A DNA stretch of 64,000 bases from Candidatus Fervidifonticultor sextus. GTDB lineage: Bacteria; Sysuimicrobiota; Sysuimicrobiia; Sysuimicrobiales; Humicultoraceae. The notes under the pieces were generated by a model that did not search any database, was not told where the DNA came from, and saw only the letters and a program-made list of their open reading frames with translations. Below, piece by piece: positions 18,176 through 51,998 of the stretch; position 1 is the stretch's first letter, and every line of letters begins with the position of its first letter. A program made the translations under genes and the position numbers. The stretch is from assembly GCA_031459875.1 (NCBI GenBank), contig JAVKHQ010000005.1, positions 39,584 through 103,583 on the forward strand, given 5' to 3'.

Positions 18176-18691
18176 CTACGGCGCCGACATGCGCACGGGT
18201 ACCGAGATGGCCACCGCTCCCGCCCGCTCGAAGTGCAGCGTCACGGCGAGCCGCTCCCCCTCTTTGAGGTCGCGCTTGAGTCCCAGCAGCATGATGTGGA
18301 GCCCACCCGGACGCAGCTGCGCCCGTCCGCGAGCAGGGACCACGATGGCCGGCACCTTGTGCATGCGACTCATGCCGCCCTCCATGCGCGTCTCATGGAG
18401 TTCCACCGCGGCGGCGACCCCGGCGTCGGCGCGCAACAGCCGGTCAGCCTGCGAGCCGGTGTTGTGAATGACCATGTAGATCGCCGAGGCGCCAGGTCCC
18501 ATCTCCGTGCCTTTCCCATGGACACCGGCGGGTGCCGCGACGCCCGGCCGTGCCCAGGCCTTCTCGATCCTGATCGATGACGCAGGCGACGCGGCATCGC
18601 CCGAGATGGTGGCGGCTCCGATAAACACGGCAGCGGCAACGAGGGGCGCACCCGAGAGCCACAGGTGCCTCATCTGACGTGACAGGTACAT
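18176..18691 (-). CDS. Copper chaperone PCu(A)C (DUF461), intact copy.
   Basis: HETRMEGGMSRMHKV is the H(M)X10MX21HXM-type Cu(I) motif. Start chosen at the ATG 10 nt after an AAGGAG RBS. Confidence 0.8.
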   Translation of the reverse strand: MYLSRQMRHLWLSGAPLVAAAVFIGAATISGDAASPASSIRIEKAWARPGVAAPAGVHGKGTEMGPGASAIYMVIHNTGSQADRLLRADAGVAAAVELHETRMEGGMSRMHKVPAIVVPARGRAQLRPGGLHIMLLGLKRDLKEGERLAVTLHFERAGAVAISVPVRMSAP

Positions 18692-18745
18692 CTCTGGATC
18701 ACTCCTTTGCCAATCGGTCGCGACGCGAAGTCGGGCGTGTTGCAT

Positions 18746-19330
18746 CTAGTGCCTGAGCAGCTGACGGACGTCGTGTGCCACGTCGGCCGCGGTGGCCTCG
18801 TGGCTCACATTCAGACGCCAGCGTCCCTCCCGGTCGATGACGGGGACGTTCGTCGAGTGCGCTATGAGGTACCCCGCTGCGCTGTTGCGTACCGGGACCT
18901 TCTGGAACGCGGCGCCGAAGAATCGGTAGGTCGCGGCCAACAGATGCGGGGGGCCTGTCAGACCTACGAACTCGGGGCTGAACAGACGGAGGTACCGGTC
19001 GAGGAACGCCGGGGTGTCAACCTCGGGGTCGAGCGTGATGAACACGAAGCGGACTCGCGCGGCGTCCGTCCCCAGTATCTTGGCGACGTCCCGGAACATC
19101 CCCAGGGTGAGCGGACAGACGTCCGGGCACCTGGTGTAGCCAAAGAAGACCAGGACGACGCGCCCCCGTTGCTCGGCGAGGTTGAACGGCCGCCCGTGCT
19201 GGTCGCTCAGCACGAGCCTCGGGACCGGGCGCGCAGGGTCGAGTTCGCGGGCTCGGAAGCTTGGGCGGTGGCACGCGGAGAGGAGCAGCACGGCCAAGCC
19301 GCTGGCGATCCATCTGATCCATCGGGCCAT
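18746..19330 (-). CDS. SCO1/SenC-family copper chaperone (thioredoxin fold); likely lipoprotein.
   Basis: CPDVCP is the CxxxC motif. LLLSAC is a lipobox-like sequence. GGGAGG RBS 6 nt before the ATG at 19330. Confidence 0.8.
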   Translation of the reverse strand: MARWIRWIASGLAVLLLSACHRPSFRARELDPARPVPRLVLSDQHGRPFNLAEQRGRVVLVFFGYTRCPDVCPLTLGMFRDVAKILGTDAARVRFVFITLDPEVDTPAFLDRYLRLFSPEFVGLTGPPHLLAATYRFFGAAFQKVPVRNSAAGYLIAHSTNVPVIDREGRWRLNVSHEATAADVAHDVRQLLRH

Positions 19331-19425
19331 AACTAGCCTCCCGCGAAAGGTGTCTACCACGACGCCGCACCGCAACACGCCGGGAGTCGACGGCGTGGAG
19401 TGGCGGGCCGCAGTGGTGAGTCGGA

Positions 19426-19941
19426 TTAGGCTGGGCGGTGGGCTCGAGGCGGAGGGTCCGGAACGGGGAGGGGGATGGGCATGAGGCCCGGCGAGACCGG
19501 GCGGGCGACCCGTTCGGTCGGCGGTGGCGCTCCCGGCATCACTGTCGCTGGCGCCGTGGCGACGGCCAGGCCCGAGACGCTGAGGACCTGCGCGCCATGG
19601 GCGGTCCCGGGAAGGACGGACACGACACGCGGCAGTTCAGAAATTCGTCGGCTGCCGTGCGGGGGCCACGCCGCGCTCTTCCCGTTCTCACCATGATGTC
19701 CGGGGGATCCGCGCTGCCGGTCGTGGCCGTGGCGACGGTGGTGGGCGAGCGCGTCGGCGCGCTGCGCAGGCGTACCGCCGATCACCACGTGCAGGTGGTA
19801 CGGGTCGCGCTCCACCGCCTGCGTGTCGGCGACCGGGACGATCAGTCGCAAGACCATCGCCGGCAACGCAACCGCGGCCACAACCAGGAACGGACCCGGA
19901 CGGCTTGAGCGATCTGCCGGCGCCGCGCGACATGGGAACAT
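19426..19941 (-). CDS. Uncharacterized His-rich single-pass membrane protein, paralog 1 of 3.
   Basis: TM helix FLVVAAVALPAMVLRLIV, then DPYHLHVVIGGTPAQRADALAHHRRHGHD and a C-terminal PDPPPR. Conserved with the proteins at 46480-46998 and 48798-49277. Start uncertain. Confidence 0.5.
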   Translation of the reverse strand: MFPCRAAPADRSSRPGPFLVVAAVALPAMVLRLIVPVADTQAVERDPYHLHVVIGGTPAQRADALAHHRRHGHDRQRGSPGHHGENGKSAAWPPHGSRRISELPRVVSVLPGTAHGAQVLSVSGLAVATAPATVMPGAPPPTERVARPVSPGLMPIPLPVPDPPPRAHRPA

Positions 19942-36610: not shown

Positions 36611-37609
36611 TTAGAAGATCCGGCGCAGGAGAAACGCCACCAGCCCGCCGATCAGCGCGCAGGCCGGGAACGTGAGGATCCAGGCCGCCACGATCTCGAG
36701 CCCGACGCCCCACCGCACCGCTGAGAACCGGCGTGTGGCGCCGACCCCCATGATCGCCGTATTGATGGTGTGAGTGGTGCTCACCGGGATGCCCAACCGG
36801 GTGGCCGTCTCGATGGCTGAAGCCGCGGCGGTCTCGGCGGCGAAGCCCTGGTAGGGCTCCAGTTTCGTCACCCGCATGCCCATGGTGTGGACGATCCGCC
36901 ACCCGCCCAGCGCGGTGCCGACCCCCATGGTGGCCGCGCAGGTCAGGATGACCCACAGGGGGACCCGGAACTCCGGCAGGACCCCGCCCAGCACGAGGGT
37001 CAGGGTGAAGACGCCGATGAACTTCTGGCCGTCGTTGCTCCCGTGGCTGAAGGCCATGAACGCGGCCGAGCAGATCTGCAGGCGGCCGAAGAGCCGGCGG
37101 GCCGCACCCAGTGATGTGCGCCTGAATGTCCACGAGATGGCCAGGAGCAGCAGGAACCCCCCTGCAAACCCCAGCACGCTGGAGAACCCCAGCCCGACCA
37201 GGACCTTCTGCCAGCCCTCCCACAGCAGCACGTCGGGACCGGCGGTGGCCAGCCCGGCCCCCGACAGGGCGGCGACGAGGGCGTGGCTCTCGCTGGTAGG
37301 CAGCCCGTGGAGCCACGCCAGGGTGCTCCACACCACGATGGCCAGCATCGCCGCCGCGATCGTGACCGGGTCGACGACCTCGGCCCGCACGATGCCCTTG
37401 CCGATGGTCGCCGCGACCGCGGTCCCCGACATCGCCCCGAGCGCGTTCAACACCGTCGCCATCCCCACCGCCACCGACGGCGTGAGCACCCGCGTCGAGA
37501 CCACGGTCGCGATCGCGTTGGGCGCATCCGTCCAGCCGTTGACGAACTCGGCCGCCAGGACCAGCAGGAGCACGGGGACCAGGCCGGCGGGGAAGACGGT
37601 CTCGCTCAC
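36611..37609 (-). CDS. pit: Inorganic phosphate transporter, PiT family.
   Basis: GWTDAPNAIATVVSTRVL and the C-terminal repeat GIPVSTTHTINTAIMGVG. GTG start overlaps the DUF47 stop as GTGA. Confidence 0.85.
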   Translation of the reverse strand: MSETVFPAGLVPVLLLVLAAEFVNGWTDAPNAIATVVSTRVLTPSVAVGMATVLNALGAMSGTAVAATIGKGIVRAEVVDPVTIAAAMLAIVVWSTLAWLHGLPTSESHALVAALSGAGLATAGPDVLLWEGWQKVLVGLGFSSVLGFAGGFLLLLAISWTFRRTSLGAARRLFGRLQICSAAFMAFSHGSNDGQKFIGVFTLTLVLGGVLPEFRVPLWVILTCAATMGVGTALGGWRIVHTMGMRVTKLEPYQGFAAETAAASAIETATRLGIPVSTTHTINTAIMGVGATRRFSAVRWGVGLEIVAAWILTFPACALIGGLVAFLLRRIF

Positions 37610-38223
37610 AGGTTCTTGGCCCGGATGCCCTGGAGCAGGTGTGCCACATGCTCGCACTGGTCGGTGGCCTCTTCCAGGGTCTCGTAGACTTCTTTCCACT
37701 TGATGACGTCGATGGGGTTCCCGACGTCGGTGAACAGGGTGGCGATGGCCTCGCGCTGCATGCGGTCGGCGAGGTTCTCCAGGCGATTGATCTCGCGGAC
37801 TGTTCCTTCGATGCGTTCCAGGTGTCGGAGGTTCCCGATGGCCTCCGCCACGGCCTCGCACTGGCTGACGATGATGTGCGCCAGTTCCCTCGCCTCGGCC
37901 GTGGAATGGGGAATCCGGTAGACGGCCATGCGGGCCGACGAGGCTTCGATCCAGTCCACGACGTCGTCCAGTTGCTTGGCCAGCCCAAAAAGGTCCTCCC
38001 GATCCAGCGGAACGACGAAGGTTCGGTTGAGGCGGTCGATGATCGCGTGGGTGATCTCGTCCCCCCGGTCCTCCAGCCCTTTGATCGCCTGGGCCTGACG
38101 CTCGACGTCCCGGTAGTCGTCCAGCAGGCCCTTGAGCAGCCGCGCCGACTCCAGGACGTTGGCGGCGGACTGGTTGAACAGGTCGAAGAAGACTTCCTCG
38201 CGGGGCAGGAGCCGCAGCGCCAT
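37606..38223 (-). CDS. DUF47 (PhoU-like, YkaA-type) accessory protein to the phosphate transporter.
   Basis: PhoU-like helical repeats; classic ykaA-pit gene pairing. Confidence 0.8.
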   Translation of the reverse strand: MALRLLPREEVFFDLFNQSAANVLESARLLKGLLDDYRDVERQAQAIKGLEDRGDEITHAIIDRLNRTFVVPLDREDLFGLAKQLDDVVDWIEASSARMAVYRIPHSTAEARELAHIIVSQCEAVAEAIGNLRHLERIEGTVREINRLENLADRMQREAIATLFTDVGNPIDVIKWKEVYETLEEATDQCEHVAHLLQGIRAKNL

Positions 38224-38327
38224 CGGAATCCCTCCAATCGTGAACTCGTGCCATACTTCGGCGGCGTTCCGTCACGGCCTCCATCACGCCCTCTGGCGTC
38301 GCTGGAGGCCCCTGCGGGCAGCAGACG

Positions 38328-38360: not shown

Positions 38361-39005
38361 GTGAAGACCCGCGAGGTCGCATTGACCGGCTTGATGGCGG
38401 CGCTGGTGCTGGTGATCACCCGTGCCTTCGTCCTGCCCATCCCGCAGACCAAGGGGTTCTTCAACCTGGGCGAGGCCGGGGTGTACCTGGCGGCGGTGCT
38501 GTTCGGCCCCCGCGTCGGCGCCCTGGCCGGCGGCATCGGGTCGGCCCTGGCCGACCTCACGCTGGGCTACGCCCAGTACGCGCCCTTCACGCTGGTCATC
38601 AAGGGCATCGAAGGCGCGTTGGTGGGCACCATCGCCCGCGGCGCCCGGGCGGCCTGGGTCCCCGGGCTCGCCGTCGGCGCGGCTGCGGCGGTGTGGCTGT
38701 TCTCGATGGAGGCCTTTGCCATCCGGATCGCTGCCGCATGTCTGTTGGTCGCGGCTCTGGTCGGGCTGGCGCTGCTGGCCCGCAGGCCGGAGGGCCGGGC
38801 GCCCGCCCGCCTGGCCGGCATGATCAGCGGAGGGTTGGTCATGGTGGCGGGCTACTTCACCACGCAGGCCTATGTGCTGGGGCTGGGGGCGCCGGTCGCC
38901 CTGGTGGAGGTTCCCTACAACCTGGTGCAGGTGGTGGTGGGGGTGGTGGCCGGCCTGGCAGCCGTGGCGACGGTTGAACGTGCCCTCCTTGCGCCGCCTC
39001 CGTAA
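38361..39005 (+). CDS. ECF transporter S (substrate-specific) component; substrate unknown.
   Basis: FFNLGEAGVYLAAVLFGPRVGALAGGIGSALADL; about six transmembrane segments. GTG start after a GGAGG RBS. Confidence 0.65.
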   Translation: MKTREVALTGLMAALVLVITRAFVLPIPQTKGFFNLGEAGVYLAAVLFGPRVGALAGGIGSALADLTLGYAQYAPFTLVIKGIEGALVGTIARGARAAWVPGLAVGAAAAVWLFSMEAFAIRIAAACLLVAALVGLALLARRPEGRAPARLAGMISGGLVMVAGYFTTQAYVLGLGAPVALVEVPYNLVQVVVGVVAGLAAVATVERALLAPPP

Positions 39006-39029
39006 ACATCCGACCCTCGAGGAGTGGGT

Positions 39030-39431
39030 ATGCCCAGGGTTCTGTTCGTCTGAGCGCACAACACCGCCCGCTCGCAGATGGCGGAGGGGCTGTTCAACGC
39101 CCTGGCGCCGGCGGGCTGGGAGGCGCGGTCCGCGGGGACGGACCCACAAGGCGCCGTGCGACCCGAGGCCATCGAGGTCATGCGCGAGGTCGGCATCGAC
39201 ATCAGCCACCACCATCCGAAGGCCATCGCCGACGCCATGGCGCCCGACGTGCGGCTCGTCGTGGGGCTGTGCGCCGAGGAGGCCTGCCCGGTCGTTCCCG
39301 GCACGCGCAGCCTCCACTGGCCGCTGCCGAACCCCTCGGGCCGGCCGATCGGTGTCTTTCGGGAAGTCCGCGACGACCTGGCGCACCGCATCCGTGCACT
39401 CATCCGGGAACTGACGGAGGAGGCCCCATGA
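39030..39431 (+). CDS. arsC: Thioredoxin-coupled arsenate reductase / LMW-PTP family (ArsC). It has an in-frame TGA at 39051-39053 at the catalytic CX5R cysteine position. Candidate selenoprotein (Sec); otherwise a nonsense pseudogene.
   Basis: MPRVLFV[TGA]AHNTARSQMAEGLF aligns to B. subtilis ArsC [20 protein letters not shown]. The downstream Cys pair CAEEACP is retained. A hairpin CCGCC(11-nt loop)GGCGG at 39064-39084 starts 10 nt after the TGA, which is a SECIS-like position. ATG at 39030 with a GGAGTGGG RBS. Confidence 0.55.
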
Positions 39432-39937
39432 CCGACCGTCTCGAGTCTGTGCTCGCCCGCGTGGAAGTGCCCCGCGGCAGCCGCAACAAGTACGAGGTTG
39501 ACCCGGAGCGCGGCGCGATCCGCCTCAACCGCGTCCTGTACTCGCCGCTGCACTACCCGGCCGACTACGGCTTTTTGGAGGACACGCTGGCCGAAGACGG
39601 CGACCACCTGGACGTCCTGATCTTCACCTACGAGCCGACCTTTCCGGGCTGTCTGGTGGACGTCCGCCCCATCGGCGTGCTGGACATGCGCGACGAGAAG
39701 GGCCACGACCAGAAGATCCTCGCGGTGCCGGCGGGGGATCCGCGTTTTGATGGGGTGACCGACCTGGAGCACGTCCCTTCCCACTTCCTCAAGGAGGTCA
39801 CGCACTTCTTCACGGTCTACAAGGAACTGGAACAGAAGCCCGTCGAGATTTACGGCTGGGCTGGCGCGCAGGAGGCGCGGCGGCTGGTGGGCGAGGCTGC
39901 TCGGCGATTCGCCGAGGCGGTGGAGGCCAGCCGATAA
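39428..39937 (+). CDS. ppa: Inorganic pyrophosphatase (family I).
   Basis: RNKYEVD...DYGF...DGDHLDVL; 169 aa. ATG overlaps the arsC stop as ATGA. Confidence 0.9.
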   Translation: MTDRLESVLARVEVPRGSRNKYEVDPERGAIRLNRVLYSPLHYPADYGFLEDTLAEDGDHLDVLIFTYEPTFPGCLVDVRPIGVLDMRDEKGHDQKILAVPAGDPRFDGVTDLEHVPSHFLKEVTHFFTVYKELEQKPVEIYGWAGAQEARRLVGEAARRFAEAVEASR

Positions 39938-41740: not shown

Positions 41741-42331
41741 CTATCGGCCCTCCAGGAGCGCTCGCGCGTCCGCCGCGAGGTCTGCGGCCAGAACGCCCCA
41801 TGGATACGAGAACCGGATCGTCCCGTGCCGGTCGATGAGGTAGATCGCCGTGGCATGGCCGATGCGGGCGTCCTCACCCGACCCGGCCGCCGCGTAGGGA
41901 GCGGGATAGACATTGAACGCCCGGTAGAGACGCGCCAGGACCTCTCGCGCGCCGGTGAGGCCGACGAAGTCCGGGTGGAAGATCGAAACGTACCAGCGCA
42001 ATCGCTCGGGCGTGTCGCGATCCGGATCAGTGGTGACGAAGAGCACGCGCACGTGCGCCGCGTCCACCCCGAGCAACGCCCGTGCCTGTCTGAGGGTGAC
42101 CAGCGTGGTCGGGCATACGTCGGGACAGAGCGTGTAGCCGAACGCGAGGAACACCACCATGCCTCGCAGCGCATCGAGCGAGAACGGGCGACGGTGACCA
42201 TCGAGCAGGGTGACCGCTGCCGGGAGCGGTTCGCGGACCGGCAGCCCGCGGAAGGCCGGTGGGGCCGCCCGCAGGCAGGCCCCACCCAGCAACGTCAGGC
42301 CCACGAGCGCGCAGGCCCACACCCCGCGCAT
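41741..42331 (-). CDS. SCO1/SenC-family copper chaperone (third, divergent copy).
   Basis: CPDVCP is the CxxxC motif; thioredoxin fold. Confidence 0.8.
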   Translation of the reverse strand: MRGVWACALVGLTLLGGACLRAAPPAFRGLPVREPLPAAVTLLDGHRRPFSLDALRGMVVFLAFGYTLCPDVCPTTLVTLRQARALLGVDAAHVRVLFVTTDPDRDTPERLRWYVSIFHPDFVGLTGAREVLARLYRAFNVYPAPYAAAGSGEDARIGHATAIYLIDRHGTIRFSYPWGVLAADLAADARALLEGR

Positions 42332-48797: not shown

Positions 48798-49277
48798 GTG
48801 GAGGACCGGCGGCTGATGGAGGCTGCACGTTGCGCCAGGGCGGCGGCCGTGGTCACGCGCCCGGTCCGAACGTCTCTGCTCCCCGTGTTCCTGGTCATCG
48901 TCCTTCTTGGTGCTTTCGATCCGGGTGCGGGGGAGCGGGGTCCTTCGCACGCACACATCGTAATCGGTGGCACCCCGGACGAGCAGGCGCGAGCCCTCGC
49001 TGCCCATTTGCGGGGCGCGCACTCGTCGGCCACCTCCCACGCCTGGCATGTGCTCTTCCGGGCCTCCGACGAGGCGACAGACCACCCCCACGTGATCTCC
49101 ATCAGCACGGGTGCGGTCGGTGCCTCCGTCCTCGGAGTCGGCGACGGGACCATGGTGGCCGCGCCCGCCAGCCGGGTGCCCCGCGCACCGCTGTCCGGCC
49201 GGGTTGTGCCCCTGCAGTCCGCGGCGCCGGCCGAAGCCGATCGGACCGTCCCTGATCCGCCTCCTCGCCTCACCTGA
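48798..49277 (+). CDS. Uncharacterized His-rich single-pass membrane protein, paralog 3 of 3 (divergent).
   Basis: TM helix LLPVFLVIVLLGAF, then PSHAHIVIGGTPDEQARALAAHLRGAH and a C-terminal PDPPPRLT. Confidence 0.45.
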   Translation: MEDRRLMEAARCARAAAVVTRPVRTSLLPVFLVIVLLGAFDPGAGERGPSHAHIVIGGTPDEQARALAAHLRGAHSSATSHAWHVLFRASDEATDHPHVISISTGAVGASVLGVGDGTMVAAPASRVPRAPLSGRVVPLQSAAPAEADRTVPDPPPRLT

Positions 49278-49378
49278 ACCGTCCGGCTACACACATGGCA
49301 CGCTGGCGGACGGGCATCGCCCCCGGAGGTCGTGGTCCCGCCTGCGGGTCGATGCCCAGATCATGGGAGGTGGGCACT

Positions 49379-49813
49379 GTGAGAAGGCAGCTCCTTGTGC
49401 TGGCCCTGTGCGTCCCCCTGACCCTGGGCGTCATCGCGCCAGCCGTTCTCGGTCACCAGACGAAGGTGGTGGGCGGCAAGTACCGGGTAATCGTGGGGTT
49501 TGTCCGGGAGCCCGCCTTCACCGATGAGCGCAACGGCCTGGACCTGATCGTGCGCCGGGTTGAAGACAATGCCCCCGTGGAGCACCTCGAACGCAGCCTC
49601 TCGGCCGAACTGATCGCCCCAGGAGGCCAGGGCAGGCGGGCGCTGCGGCTTCGGCCGCAGTTCGGCCGGCCCGGCTACTACACCGACGACTTCATCCTGA
49701 CCCGTCCGGGTGTCTACCAGATCCGCGTGTGGGGCGTCATCGCTGACGTGCGCTTCGACGAGACGTTTGAGTCCCATGAGGTCAGGCCGCTCAGTGAGTT
49801 GCGGTTTCCGTAG
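49379..49813 (+). CDS. Putative periplasmic copper-binding protein (CopC-like / YcnI-like beta-sandwich). Assignment tentative.
   Basis: Signal peptide, then GHQTKVVGGKYRV. C-terminal GVYQIRVWGVI resembles the CopC G-Y-V-W-V pattern. GTG start with a GGGAGG RBS. Confidence 0.4.
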   Translation: MRRQLLVLALCVPLTLGVIAPAVLGHQTKVVGGKYRVIVGFVREPAFTDERNGLDLIVRRVEDNAPVEHLERSLSAELIAPGGQGRRALRLRPQFGRPGYYTDDFILTRPGVYQIRVWGVIADVRFDETFESHEVRPLSELRFP

Positions 49814-49814
49814 C

Positions 49815-50273
49815 ATGCGGGGATCGTTTCCCGAGACTGTCCTGGTCGGCGCCGCCCTGGCCCTCCTGGGGGCCGGGGCGGCTGCCGCCCACGCCTACCT
49901 CAGGGCCGCGGAGCCGGCCGAGGACAGCACGGTGGCGGTCGCCCCCAGCGAGGTTCGGCTTGTGTTCAGCGAACCCATCGAGGTCCGGTTCAGTACCTTC
50001 AAGGTCTATCGGGTGCCCGCTGATCCGGGGTGGGATCGGCGTCGCCTCAACGCGGCTGCAGGCGCCCTGGTCTCGGAGGTCCTTCGGCGTCGCGGTGACG
50101 AAGCCGACCGGGCGGATGCCGGCCTGGCGACGGCCGCACGTACGACCACCACCGTGACGCTACGCCTGCGTCCCCATCTGGCTCCCGGCGCCTACGCGGT
50201 GATGTGGCGGGTGCTGTCGATCGACACGCATGTCACCCAGGGCTTCTACGTGTTTCGGATCAGACCGAACTGA
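49815..50273 (+). CDS. copC: Copper resistance protein CopC.
   Basis: Mature N-terminal His (AAAAHAYL), EVRLVFSEPIEVRFSTFKVY, and GAYAVMWRVLSIDTHVTQGFYVF. Confidence 0.85.
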   Translation: MRGSFPETVLVGAALALLGAGAAAAHAYLRAAEPAEDSTVAVAPSEVRLVFSEPIEVRFSTFKVYRVPADPGWDRRRLNAAAGALVSEVLRRRGDEADRADAGLATAARTTTTVTLRLRPHLAPGAYAVMWRVLSIDTHVTQGFYVFRIRPN

Positions 50274-50294
50274 AGGGACGCGTCACCCGATCTC

Positions 50295-51998
50295 ATGGAC
50301 GTCCTCGCCAGGACCCTTTCCTACCTCGGCGCGACCCTGTTGATTGGTGCAGGGATCTTCGCCTTCTGGATCGGCCCCGAGATGGCCCGCAGCGCGGCGC
50401 GTGGGCGGATCCGCCTCGGCGCGCTGGCGGGAGTCTGCCTGCTGCTGGTGGGGACCGCACTGGGGGTGATCCGGGGACTCCTCCAGGCGCTGGGCGAACT
50501 GGGTCCGGCCATGGTACCGGCCTACCTTCTCGGGACCCGTCACGGCAACGCGGCCGCCGCCCGGATCGTGCTCGCCGTCCTGCTCGGGGTCATGGCGCCG
50601 GGCCGCGGCGGCCGACTCAGCAGGCCCGTCTTTCTGGGGCTCGCCGCCGGCCTGCTCGCGACTTTCAGCCTGACCAGCCACGCCGCCGGCCTCGGTCGGG
50701 TCTTCCCGATCCTGGCGGACCTGGTCCACCTTTCCGGCGCCGCCGTGTGGGCCGGCGTCGTGCTCTACCTGGCATGGGCTCCAGTCTGGGTGCCCAGCCT
50801 GCCGCAGGGCGCCCCCGGAGATTCTCTGAGCCAGGCCGTGCGGCAGACCTCCGCGATCGGACTGGCCTGCGTCCTCCTGCTCGTTGCGACCGGCGCCTAC
50901 GCGGCCGCCCTGCACCTCTGGGGCCCCGTGGCGCTCTCGGCCACCCCGTACGGCCGGACCCTCGCGGGCAAACTCGCGGCCATCGCCCTGCTGCTGGCAA
51001 TCGCTGCGGTGAACCGTTGGGTGCTCACTCCTGGTCTTGGGCGGCCCGGATTCCTCGGGGCGACTGGCCGCCTGCTGAAGGTCGAGTCGCTGGTTCTGGC
51101 CGCCGTCTTGTCCCTGACTGCCCTGCTCACCACGCGCCCGCTGCCCGAGCCGCCGGCCTCCGTGGAGGGCGTCGTGACCATCAATGAGGTGGCTGGCCCC
51201 TGGCTGGTGCGGGGGAGCCTGGCTCCGGCGATTCCCGACGGGCTCACCCTTGAGTTGACGGTCCGCCGCGCTGGCGGCGCCCTCCCGGTGGGCCCGATGT
51301 CCGTGGAAGCCGTGATGACCATGCAGGGGCATCCGATGCCGCCGGTGGTCATCCGGCCGACGGCCACCGGTCCGGGAAGTTTCCGCGCCGCTGTCTCGCT
51401 GCCGATGGCTGGCGCGTGGGACCTCGCTATCGTCCTGCCGGGCGCCGTCCTCCGTGTTCCCGTCATGGCTCGCAGCGGTCCGGGGGGCGGCTCAGGGTGG
51501 GCTCCAGTGCTGCCAGGTCTCCTGCTGGCGGTCGCCGCCTCGGTCGTTGCGGGTGCCATGCTCGACCGGGCAGGCCTCCACACGCAGACAGGCCGGCTGG
51601 CCGCCCTCACAGGAGGCGCCCTGCTGGCGGTCGGCCTGACCTTCGCCGTCCGCGCCGCAGCCCCCGCCACCTCGCCGGGCGGGATCCCTGACCGGCAGAA
51701 TCCCATCGCCCCGACGGCGGAGTCGCTGGCCGCCGGAGAACGCCTCTACCGGCAGCATTGCCAGGCCTGCCACGGGCTCACCGGAGCCGGCGACGGTCCG
51801 GCCGCCGCAGCGCTCCGCCCGCCGCCGGCGGACCTGCGGGTGCACATGGCGGCGGGGCACACCGACGGCCAGCTCTTCCACTGGATCAGCGAGGGCATGC
51901 CCGGGACCGCCATGCCAGCCTTCAAGAATATCCTCTCCGAGGAGGACCGCTGGCATGTGTTGAACTTCATCAAATCGTTCGCCCTCAGCGATCGGTAA
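50295..51998 (+). CDS. CopD-family membrane protein fused to a C-terminal mono-haem cytochrome c domain.
   Basis: Multi-TM CopD region. C-terminal region LYRQHCQACHG has the CxxCH haem-binding motif; ...GMPGTAMPAF is Met-ligand-like. Confidence 0.75.
   Translation: MDVLARTLSYLGATLLIGAGIFAFWIGPEMARSAARGRIRLGALAGVCLLLVGTALGVIRGLLQALGELGPAMVPAYLLGTRHGNAAAARIVLAVLLGVMAPGRGGRLSRPVFLGLAAGLLATFSLTSHAAGLGRVFPILADLVHLSGAAVWAGVVLYLAWAPVWVPSLPQGAPGDSLSQAVRQTSAIGLACVLLLVATGAYAAALHLWGPVALSATPYGRTLAGKLAAIALLLAIAAVNRWVLTPGLGRPGFLGATGRLLKVESLVLAAVLSLTALLTTRPLPEPPASVEGVVTINEVAGPWLVRGSLAPAIPDGLTLELTVRRAGGALPVGPMSVEAVMTMQGHPMPPVVIRPTATGPGSFRAAVSLPMAGAWDLAIVLPGAVLRVPVMARSGPGGGSGWAPVLPGLLLAVAASVVAGAMLDRAGLHTQTGRLAALTGGALLAVGLTFAVRAAAPATSPGGIPDRQNPIAPTAESLAAGERLYRQHCQACHGLTGAGDGPAAAALRPPPADLRVHMAAGHTDGQLFHWISEGMPGTAMPAFKNILSEEDRWHVLNFIKSFALSDR

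Follow-up and report, generated by a model that had tools for sequence, protein, structure and literature searches.

A gene at positions 39030-39431 of a 64,000-nucleotide stretch of Candidatus Fervidifonticultor sextus DNA (contig JAVKHQ010000005.1, positions 39,584 to 103,583, forward strand; henceforth the window, with positions counted from its first letter) encodes an arsenate reductase-like protein of the low-molecular-weight protein tyrosine phosphatase (LMW-PTP) fold and carries an in-frame TGA at the codon of the catalytic nucleophile. On comparative sequence evidence, this TGA is very probably a conserved selenocysteine (Sec, U) codon, and we henceforth call the gene Sec-arsC. Translation from the ATG at 39030 gives MPRVLFV-TGA-AHNTARSQMAEG..., and the in-frame reading MPRVLFV*AHNTARSQMAEGLFNALAP... 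remains open as far as the TGA at 39429-39431. The features of the gene are as follows.

39030-39431, forward strand: predicted Sec-containing LMW-PTP-fold arsenate reductase-like gene of 133 residues, from the ATG at 39030 to the real stop TGA at 39429-39431.
39020-39023, forward strand: ribosome-binding site GGAG, 6 nt 5' of the ATG, read directly from the sequence.
39051-39053, forward strand: in-frame TGA, codon 8, at the position of the P-loop nucleophile and read here as a Sec codon (TGA in 50/50 Sec-type, TGC or TGT in 78/78 Cys-type sequences).
39051-39074, forward strand: P-loop codons U8-A-H-N11-T-A-R14-S15, with N11, R14 and S15 invariant in 49 Sec-type and 78 Cys-type proteins.
39270-39287, forward strand: resolving pair Cys81 (39270-39272) and Cys86 (39285-39287) within CAEEAC, equivalent to Cys82/Cys89 of pI258 ArsC and invariant in 49 Sec-type proteins.
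39330-39332, forward strand: Asn101, aligned with the general-acid Asp105 of pI258 ArsC.
39078-39431, forward strand: 117-residue "remnant" open reading frame (ORF) from Met17, as gene callers annotate it and the sole entry for the gene in the mechanical ORF list.

A preliminary description, made from the letters of the window alone, had proposed this layout, and it holds in each part: the start at ATG 39030 is preceded by a ribosome-binding site, the TGA replaces the nucleophilic Cys of the CX5R loop, R14-S15 follow after the expected five residues, the resolving Cys pair of the CAEEACP segment is retained, and the ORF list contains only the 117-residue remnant.

The TGA is fixed throughout a clade of homologues. 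Searching 5.8 billion proteins and inspecting the best 120 homologues (60-95% identity), we found that the annotated start is the Met after the P-loop in 110 and lies between the TGA position and Met17 in 7; the only full-length Cys forms among them are P0002 and P0020. The DNA of homologous loci, taken from GTDB with one genome per species, gave tblastn matches that begin with query residue 1. All 32 bacterial close-relative loci (59-95% identity, species representatives) have TGA at codon 8, preceded by an in-frame start codon and M-x-x-V-L-F-V; they derive from metagenome-assembled genomes (MAGs) named Ca. Fervidifonticultor, Calidihabitans, Geohabitans, "Armatimonadota bacterium" and "ANGP1", that is, from the CSP1-3/Sysuimicrobiota lineage. 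The 47 more distant, mostly archaeal loci all have TGC or TGT at this codon, and a metagenome scan yielded 26 additional TGA loci. Aligning ArsC homologues for Cys or TGA at this column, as had been proposed at the outset, thus gave TGA at codon 8 in 50/50 distinct Sec-type sequences and TGC or TGT in all 78 Cys-type homologues, which are mostly archaeal. In a neighbour-joining tree 49/49 Sec-type proteins fall into one clade, within which only two Cys forms are nested, L081 (TGT) and L083 (TGC); L081 has the gene order of the window and a codon only one base away from TGA. The MAG Ca. Fervidifonticultor secundus JZ-2_201808_bins_221 contains a pair of diverged Sec-type paralogues, both with TGA (L007 1398-1784 and L012 10001-10387; 73% and 66% identity to the window protein).

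Purifying selection acts on both sides of the TGA. Every one of the 50 distinct Sec-type sequences begins with an aligned ATG or GTG, and the upstream residues are kept with synonymous codon variation (Val4 in 49/50, Phe6 in 50/50, Val7 in 48/50), so that the start codon and V-L-F-V 5' of the TGA are constrained together with the P-loop 3' of it. These data bear on two readings in which the UGA would not be decoded. If a TGC-to-TGA nonsense mutation had killed an ordinary ArsC, the single nucleotide between TGA and TGC or TGT, the gene callers' 117-residue remnant and the failure to find Sec machinery in the window would fit; against such a pseudogene, 50 distinct sequences representing no fewer than 32 species (59-95% protein identity) share the TGA, with intact starts, retained V-L-F-V and synonymous variation to either side, the TGA is present in both paralogues of the MAG named above, and the downstream catalytic residues are invariant. 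We give this reading next to no credence. It is also highly improbable that the UGA is a true stop and the functional product a shorter, Met17-initiated protein lacking the P-loop nucleophile. Such a start is annotated in 110 of the 120 nearest database proteins, and purine-rich sequence lies 5' of Met17, but codon 17 is Ile or Val instead of Met in 10/50 homologues, including the non-initiating ATC and ATA, few codons of the gene are as strongly conserved as the eight of the P-loop between UGA and Met17, the seven codons 5' of the UGA and the start codon are conserved as well, and without the P-loop the active site of the fold is gone. The conserved start, upstream codons and P-loop and the non-Met codons 17 thus effectively exclude both the pseudogene and the Met17-initiated product. 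The earlier proposals that the TGA is a Sec codon, not a nonsense mutation, and that the rest of the protein is under selection are supported by a TGA fixed in the clade, by Cys in the other homologues, by the selection found on both sides and by an RNA structure, described below, that only the Sec-type genes share.

How is the UGA decoded? Decoding as Trp or Cys by near-cognate read-through, or through reassignment of UGA in the lineage, has to be weighed here. TGA closes 14 of the 32 confident ORFs of the window, Sec-arsC among them, which argues that UGA is not reassigned. Trp at the catalytic Cys position of a redox enzyme would abolish activity, and Cys codons are the sole replacements seen at the site. 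A second candidate selenoprotein gene in the same lineage provides indirect support for Sec: on seven contigs with Sec-arsC (L010, L020, L023, L028, L087, L094 and L105), a gene matching TIGR02187, PDO_seleno_TRX (219 bits, cutoff 185), lies 4-7 kb away.

L010 5516-6319, reverse strand: PDO_seleno_TRX gene (TIGR02187).

TIGR02187 is a curated selenoprotein family, and the gene on these contigs has an in-frame TGA at its UxxC motif (...VFVTPT-U-PHCP...) and, starting 13 nt downstream of the TGA, a hairpin of 9 bp whose loop is GGC or GGA and in which a G-C pair is changed to C-G between contigs, a compensatory change. PDO_seleno_TRX, a protein disulfide oxidoreductase like the N-terminal domain of AhpF, thus shares with Sec-arsC the genomes, the contigs, an in-frame TGA at a redox Cys and a downstream hairpin; it differs in its thioredoxin fold and UxxC motif and in a compact hairpin (9 bp, 3-nt loop) that fits the bacterial consensus well. 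Since this TIGR02187 gene, with TGA and canonical hairpin, sits on Sec-arsC contigs, the CSP1-3/Sysuimicrobiota lineage appears to decode UGA as Sec. Between the two genes lie an amidohydrolase, an energy-coupling factor (ECF) transporter S component and an M20 peptidase, and no Sec genes. Elsewhere, a second conserved in-frame TGA (...SSTAP-U-KFCSNPP...), with high G+C at third codon positions on both sides, occurs on two related ANGP1-type contigs (L015 2559 and L031 6888, both reverse strand); it may be an antisense artefact.

Against Sec decoding stands the failure to find its machinery in the sequence covered. The 64-kb window, examined by a Pfam scan of its larger ORFs, by ARAGORN and by motif searches, yielded none of selA, selB, selD and tRNA-Sec, and neither did ~1 Mb of related loci. 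Rfam and ARAGORN gave no Rfam family and no tRNA in the window, ARAGORN gave no tRNA-Sec on the 32 loci, and motif searches for SelA, SelD, SelB-like GTPases and Sec-containing FdhA gave no real match in the window or in any locus. The Pfam scan of the window's larger ORFs returned housekeeping genes and no Sec machinery, and the supplement of the CSP1-3 paper (PMC11604079) does not mention selA, selB or selD. The other ORFs of the window that are split around a TGA are ordinary junctions only (prfA/prmC-like and copC/copD-like). Read-through or reassignment would agree with these negative searches and with a downstream RNA structure that might in principle stimulate read-through; given the 14 TGA-closed ORFs, the catalytic site and the seven TIGR02187 contigs, we nonetheless consider non-Sec decoding improbable.

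We next turn to the RNA downstream of the Sec codon, where a selenocysteine insertion sequence (SECIS) would be expected. Two elements are relevant.

39064-39123, forward strand: composite stem-loop of ~60 nt, the best SECIS candidate (minimum free energy -39.6 kcal/mol; Sec-type-specific).
39064-39084, forward strand: 5-bp hairpin CCGCC (39064-39068), 11-nt loop, GGCGG (39080-39084); present, not conserved.

Counting nucleotides from the U of UGA, nt 14-22 of the window pair with nt 60-69 around an inner hairpin at 39079-39110, whose apical loop is UGUUCAAC at 39091-39098. A long composite stem-loop forms in 45 of 46 distinct Sec-type sequences when 72 nt are folded. The 5' strand of its base stem, GCCCGCU, occupies nt 16-22 in the Ala13-Arg14-Ser15 codons and pairs with GGCGGGC, which in most sequences is nt 68-74 in Trp-Arg-Ala codons; the window has Trp-Glu-Ala there and uses the GGCGGGC at nt 60-66 instead. 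The 5' arm of the inner hairpin is AUG-GCG-GAG-GGG-C, which reuses GGCGG, and the loop lies over Leu-Phe-Asn codons.

The base stem distinguishes Sec-type from Cys-type genes. At columns 16-22/68-74, 94.9% of cells are paired in 45 Sec-type sequences versus 50.6% in 79 Cys-type sequences, and at least six of the seven pairs form in 40/45 versus 4/79. Three double synonymous changes occur in the Sec-type set: columns 18 and 72, both synonymous third positions, are C-G in 41 sequences and G-C in 3 (exactly L026, L030 and L104), with one mismatch (Fisher 2.8e-4). Synonymous codon choice is frozen in Sec-type genes at GTC7 (44/47; background 0.41), GCC13 (46/48; 0.38) and CGC14 (47/49; 0.36), where the binomial figures against these backgrounds of 0.36-0.41 ignore relatedness; Cys-type genes use the Arg14 and Arg31 codons freely. 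Compared with synonymous recodings that preserve protein and codon usage, nt 13-84 are more stable in the 45 Sec-type sequences (mean z -1.56, Wilcoxon 1e-12; window z -1.99), and the Cys-type mean z is -0.04, not significant; the following 72 nt give no signal in either group. Codon 7 (39048-39050), GTC in the window and immediately before the UGA, varies freely in Cys-type genes; its freezing in Sec-type genes may reflect an influence of codon context on how the UGA is decoded or on termination.

The published bacterial SECIS (bSECIS) consensus allows a 3-9-nt loop and 16-37-nt spacing (PMC13188914 Fig. 2). The window element resembles it as a stem-loop within the coding region just 3' of the UGA, with a 5-bp upper stem, an 8-nt loop that has GU at positions 2-3, and an energy well below -7.5 kcal/mol; it differs in its ~60-nt length, its conserved base stem and a spacing that reaches or exceeds the permitted maximum, and among Sec-arsC homologues the inner hairpin varies in register and loop. 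Several observations weigh against calling it a SECIS. The fit of the window is marginal, its 37-nt spacing being the upper limit, and the strongest inner hairpin of several homologues is spaced at 40 nt, with a loop that does not begin with G. Homologues differ in the register of the inner hairpin (i+j = 86-93), and column-wise covariation is therefore weak; RNAalifold on the codon alignment, with this shift between sequences, returned only a weak consensus. Taken alone, the window fold does not stand out from dinucleotide shuffles (z -1.35), and both Cys revertants (L081 and L083) retain most of the structure. A scan with the strict bSECIS model, also proposed in the preliminary description, does hit 25/31 Sec-type sequences, but it hits 33/48 Cys-type sequences too and so does not discriminate in this G+C-rich gene. 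Because of the marginal consensus fit, the register shift and the revertants that keep the structure, the composite stem-loop at 39064-39123 is a SECIS candidate, not a proven SECIS.

The element originally suggested as the SECIS was the 5-bp hairpin. It does begin 10 nt past the TGA as described, but a loop of 11 nt and a spacing of 15 nt place it outside the bSECIS limits, and it fails on conservation: 76.9% of its positions are paired, the outer two pairs are disrupted in 18-22 of the 45 Sec-type homologues, no compensatory change is seen, and 500/500 shuffles attain the observed covariation. Both of its arms serve the larger structure instead, and in sequence that is 71% G+C around it, the hairpin is no more than chance. 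We also rejected a hairpin that pairs the GA of the UGA (nt 2-9 with 16-23), which is 70.6% paired and scored equally high in shuffles. Where Val-Gly follows the UGA in a homologue, an 8-bp hairpin of GAGUGGGC with GCCCGCUC takes in this GA; the arrangement (window 39052-39073, nt 2-23) competes with the base stem and has no support from covariation, and the window forms only 5 bp of it.

The protein belongs to the LMW-PTP-fold arsenate reductases by sequence and structure. With Cys placed at the TGA, the only Pfam match is PF01451 LMWPc (E 9e-21, residues 4-124), with no match to PF03960, and phmmer against the PDB returns Staphylococcus aureus pI258 ArsC as best match (1LJL/1LJU, E 3e-22 to 1e-21), with Archaeoglobus fulgidus ArsC (1Y1L) also close. 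An AlphaFold 2 model of a 76%-identical Cys form (pLDDT 93.5) has TM-scores of 0.85 to 1LJU and 0.83 to 1Y1L, and the top 20 PDB matches of the model are all LMW-PTP-fold arsenate reductases, with true phosphatases ranking below. The pI258-type enzymes (S. aureus, B. subtilis, A. fulgidus 1Y1L; PF01451, TIGR02691) and the window protein share the fold, a P-loop with equivalents of Asn13, Arg16 and Ser17, and equivalents of Cys82 and Cys89: in the alignment the TGA falls on Cys10, Cys81 on Cys82, Cys86 on Cys89 and Asn101 on Asp105, and none of N11, R14, S15, C81 and C86 varies among 49 Sec-type proteins. The residues that we take to form the K+ site of pI258 ArsC (Glu21, Ser36 and Asp65) likewise have equivalents. 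Only if the UGA is read as Sec is the CX5R(S/T) P-loop present, as U8-AHNTA-R14-S15. The window protein differs from the pI258 type in a nucleophile encoded by UGA instead of a Cys codon, in Ala at the second P-loop Cys (Cys15), in a Cys81-Cys86 spacing two residues shorter, in Asn for Asp105 and in a location outside any ars operon. Among the 78 Cys-type homologues, mostly archaeal, 60 have Leu at the Cys81 column, all have Cys86 and 24 have Cys at the Cys15 position; they may use another resolving scheme than the Sec clade, or the Cys81 column may be misaligned.

By analogy with pI258 ArsC, the catalytic mechanism is likely the known three-step cascade with selenium in place of the first sulphur. 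SelB·GTP·Sec-tRNA(Sec) would bind the stem-loop at 39064-39123 and bring Sec to the UGA. In the protein, the U-X5-R-S anion-binding loop would hold Sec8, whose selenolate would attack arsenate; attack by Cys81 on the resulting Se-As adduct would then free arsenite and create a Se-S bond, which Cys86 would resolve to a Cys81-Cys86 disulfide for reduction by thioredoxin.

The neighbourhood of Sec-arsC bears on its substrate.

36611-37603, reverse strand: PiT phosphate transporter (PHO4; PF01384, E 4e-88).
37606-38223, reverse strand: PhoU-like DUF47 protein (PF01865, E 9e-31).
38361-39005, forward strand: ECF-transporter S component (PF07155, E 5e-35), directly upstream in the same frame, with its TAA stop at 39003-39005.
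39428-39937, forward strand: inorganic pyrophosphatase gene ppa (PF00719, E 1e-54), overlapping Sec-arsC by ATGA and translationally coupled.

The ppa gene directly follows Sec-arsC in at least 12 loci, and the PiT-DUF47 pair is directly upstream in L002, L021, L022 and L025 and a few kb away in L009, L012 and L019. Arsenate enters cells via phosphate transporters, and the gene context therefore fits arsenate detoxification as well. The conserved position beside a PiT/PhoU-like importer and a pyrophosphatase suggests that the enzyme detoxifies arsenate arriving with phosphate uptake, a housekeeping link.

Arsenate reduction by the window protein is nevertheless a prediction from homology only, and some findings count against it. 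The general-acid Asp is replaced by Asn (Asn101-Pro102), no ars operon genes lie near Sec-arsC, and the protein misses the NCBIfam equivalog cutoffs, scoring 87.8 bits against TIGR02691 (174.3) and 90.5 bits against NF010053 (215); since these scores are about half the cutoffs, it represents a distinct subfamily, not an equivalog. It might then be a selenoprotein other than an arsenate reductase, namely a Sec phosphatase (protein-Tyr/Arg or small-molecule) or a reductase of another oxyanion, linked to phosphate metabolism. Neighbours that comprise a phosphate importer, a PhoU-like protein and a pyrophosphatase, without ars genes, agree with this, as do the missed cutoffs and the Asn general acid of the window and 17/49 clade members (position 101 being Asp in 28, Asn in 17, Ser in 2, Gly in 1 and a gap in one of the 49). 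By contrast, every member of the clade keeps the Cys82/Cys89-equivalent pair, a defining feature of the reductase disulfide cascade that true LMW-PTPs lack, the 20 closest structural neighbours are all arsenate reductases, and the uptake of arsenate by phosphate transporters makes the context compatible with detoxification. We regard a function other than arsenate reduction as unlikely and prefer the arsenate reductase assignment.

The window is otherwise a housekeeping stretch (prfA, glyA, upp, glnA, rho and argS, with copper and phosphate genes), and its DNA is ~94% identical to the Ca. Fervidifonticultor octavus scaffold JAVKID010000060; Ca. Fervidifonticultor belongs to the candidate phylum CSP1-3/Sysuimicrobiota (PMC11604079). 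About 1.5 kb (36765-38307, most of PiT and DUF47) is missing at L001 position 9160 in the otherwise 94%-identical Ca. F. octavus scaffold, through either a deletion or an assembly difference. P0113 (195 aa, JGI) combines LMWPc and pyrophosphatase domains in one protein, likely a gene call across the ATGA junction or a real fusion of the coupled genes. The copper genes of the window (18179-19636, reverse strand; 41744-42331, reverse strand; 49256-51995, forward strand) encode a PCu(A)C-like protein, two SCO1/SenC proteins and a CopD-cytochrome c fusion with a CopC-like ORF just 5' in the same frame.

Sec "arsenate reductases" have been known since the Sargasso Sea and Global Ocean Sampling (GOS) surveys; these are thioredoxin-fold ArsC/Spx proteins, namely COG1393/PF03960/TIGR00014 with UxxS and the "arsenate reductase-like" cd03032/NF041106 with UxxC (PMC1088965, PMC2398784, PMC13188914). 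They share with the window protein the name arsenate reductase and a prediction by Sec/Cys comparative logic, but their fold and family are unrelated and the motif of the window protein is U-X5-R, not UxxS or UxxC. In NCBIfam the window protein matches only NF010053, TIGR02691 and TIGR02689, and neither TIGR00014 nor NF041106. A 2026 catalogue of 119 prokaryotic selenoprotein families and subfamilies has no PF01451 or LMW-PTP entry, only thioredoxin-fold ArsC, and the open-access full-text literature gave no report of a Sec-containing LMW-PTP or LMW-PTP-fold ArsC. We judge Sec-arsC to be a new selenoprotein family, built on the familiar principle of Sec replacing a catalytic redox Cys. A more far-reaching proposal, which we offer tentatively and with some doubt, is that it would be the first selenoprotein of the PTP superfamily, with a Sec P-loop nucleophile and a long SECIS outside the bacterial consensus, tied to phosphate uptake instead of an ars operon as a housekeeping "arsenate proofreading" module of the uncultured hot-spring and soil phylum CSP1-3/Sysuimicrobiota, or else acting on a substrate other than arsenate.

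The finding would add the LMW-PTP/ArsC P-loop fold to the enzymes known to use selenocysteine. Well over 100 database entries, including NCBI "arsenate reductase ArsC" records, have lost their N-terminus at the active site, the UGA having been taken for a stop. The window gene and the syntenic L081 Cys form are a natural Sec/Cys pair for the contribution of selenium to arsenate reduction, and the long, atypical stem-loop is a test case for how bacterial SECIS elements may depart from the consensus. The gene should thus interest selenium and arsenic biologists and genome annotators, although it establishes no new principle, and it would mark the CSP1-3/Sysuimicrobiota lineage as selenium-using.

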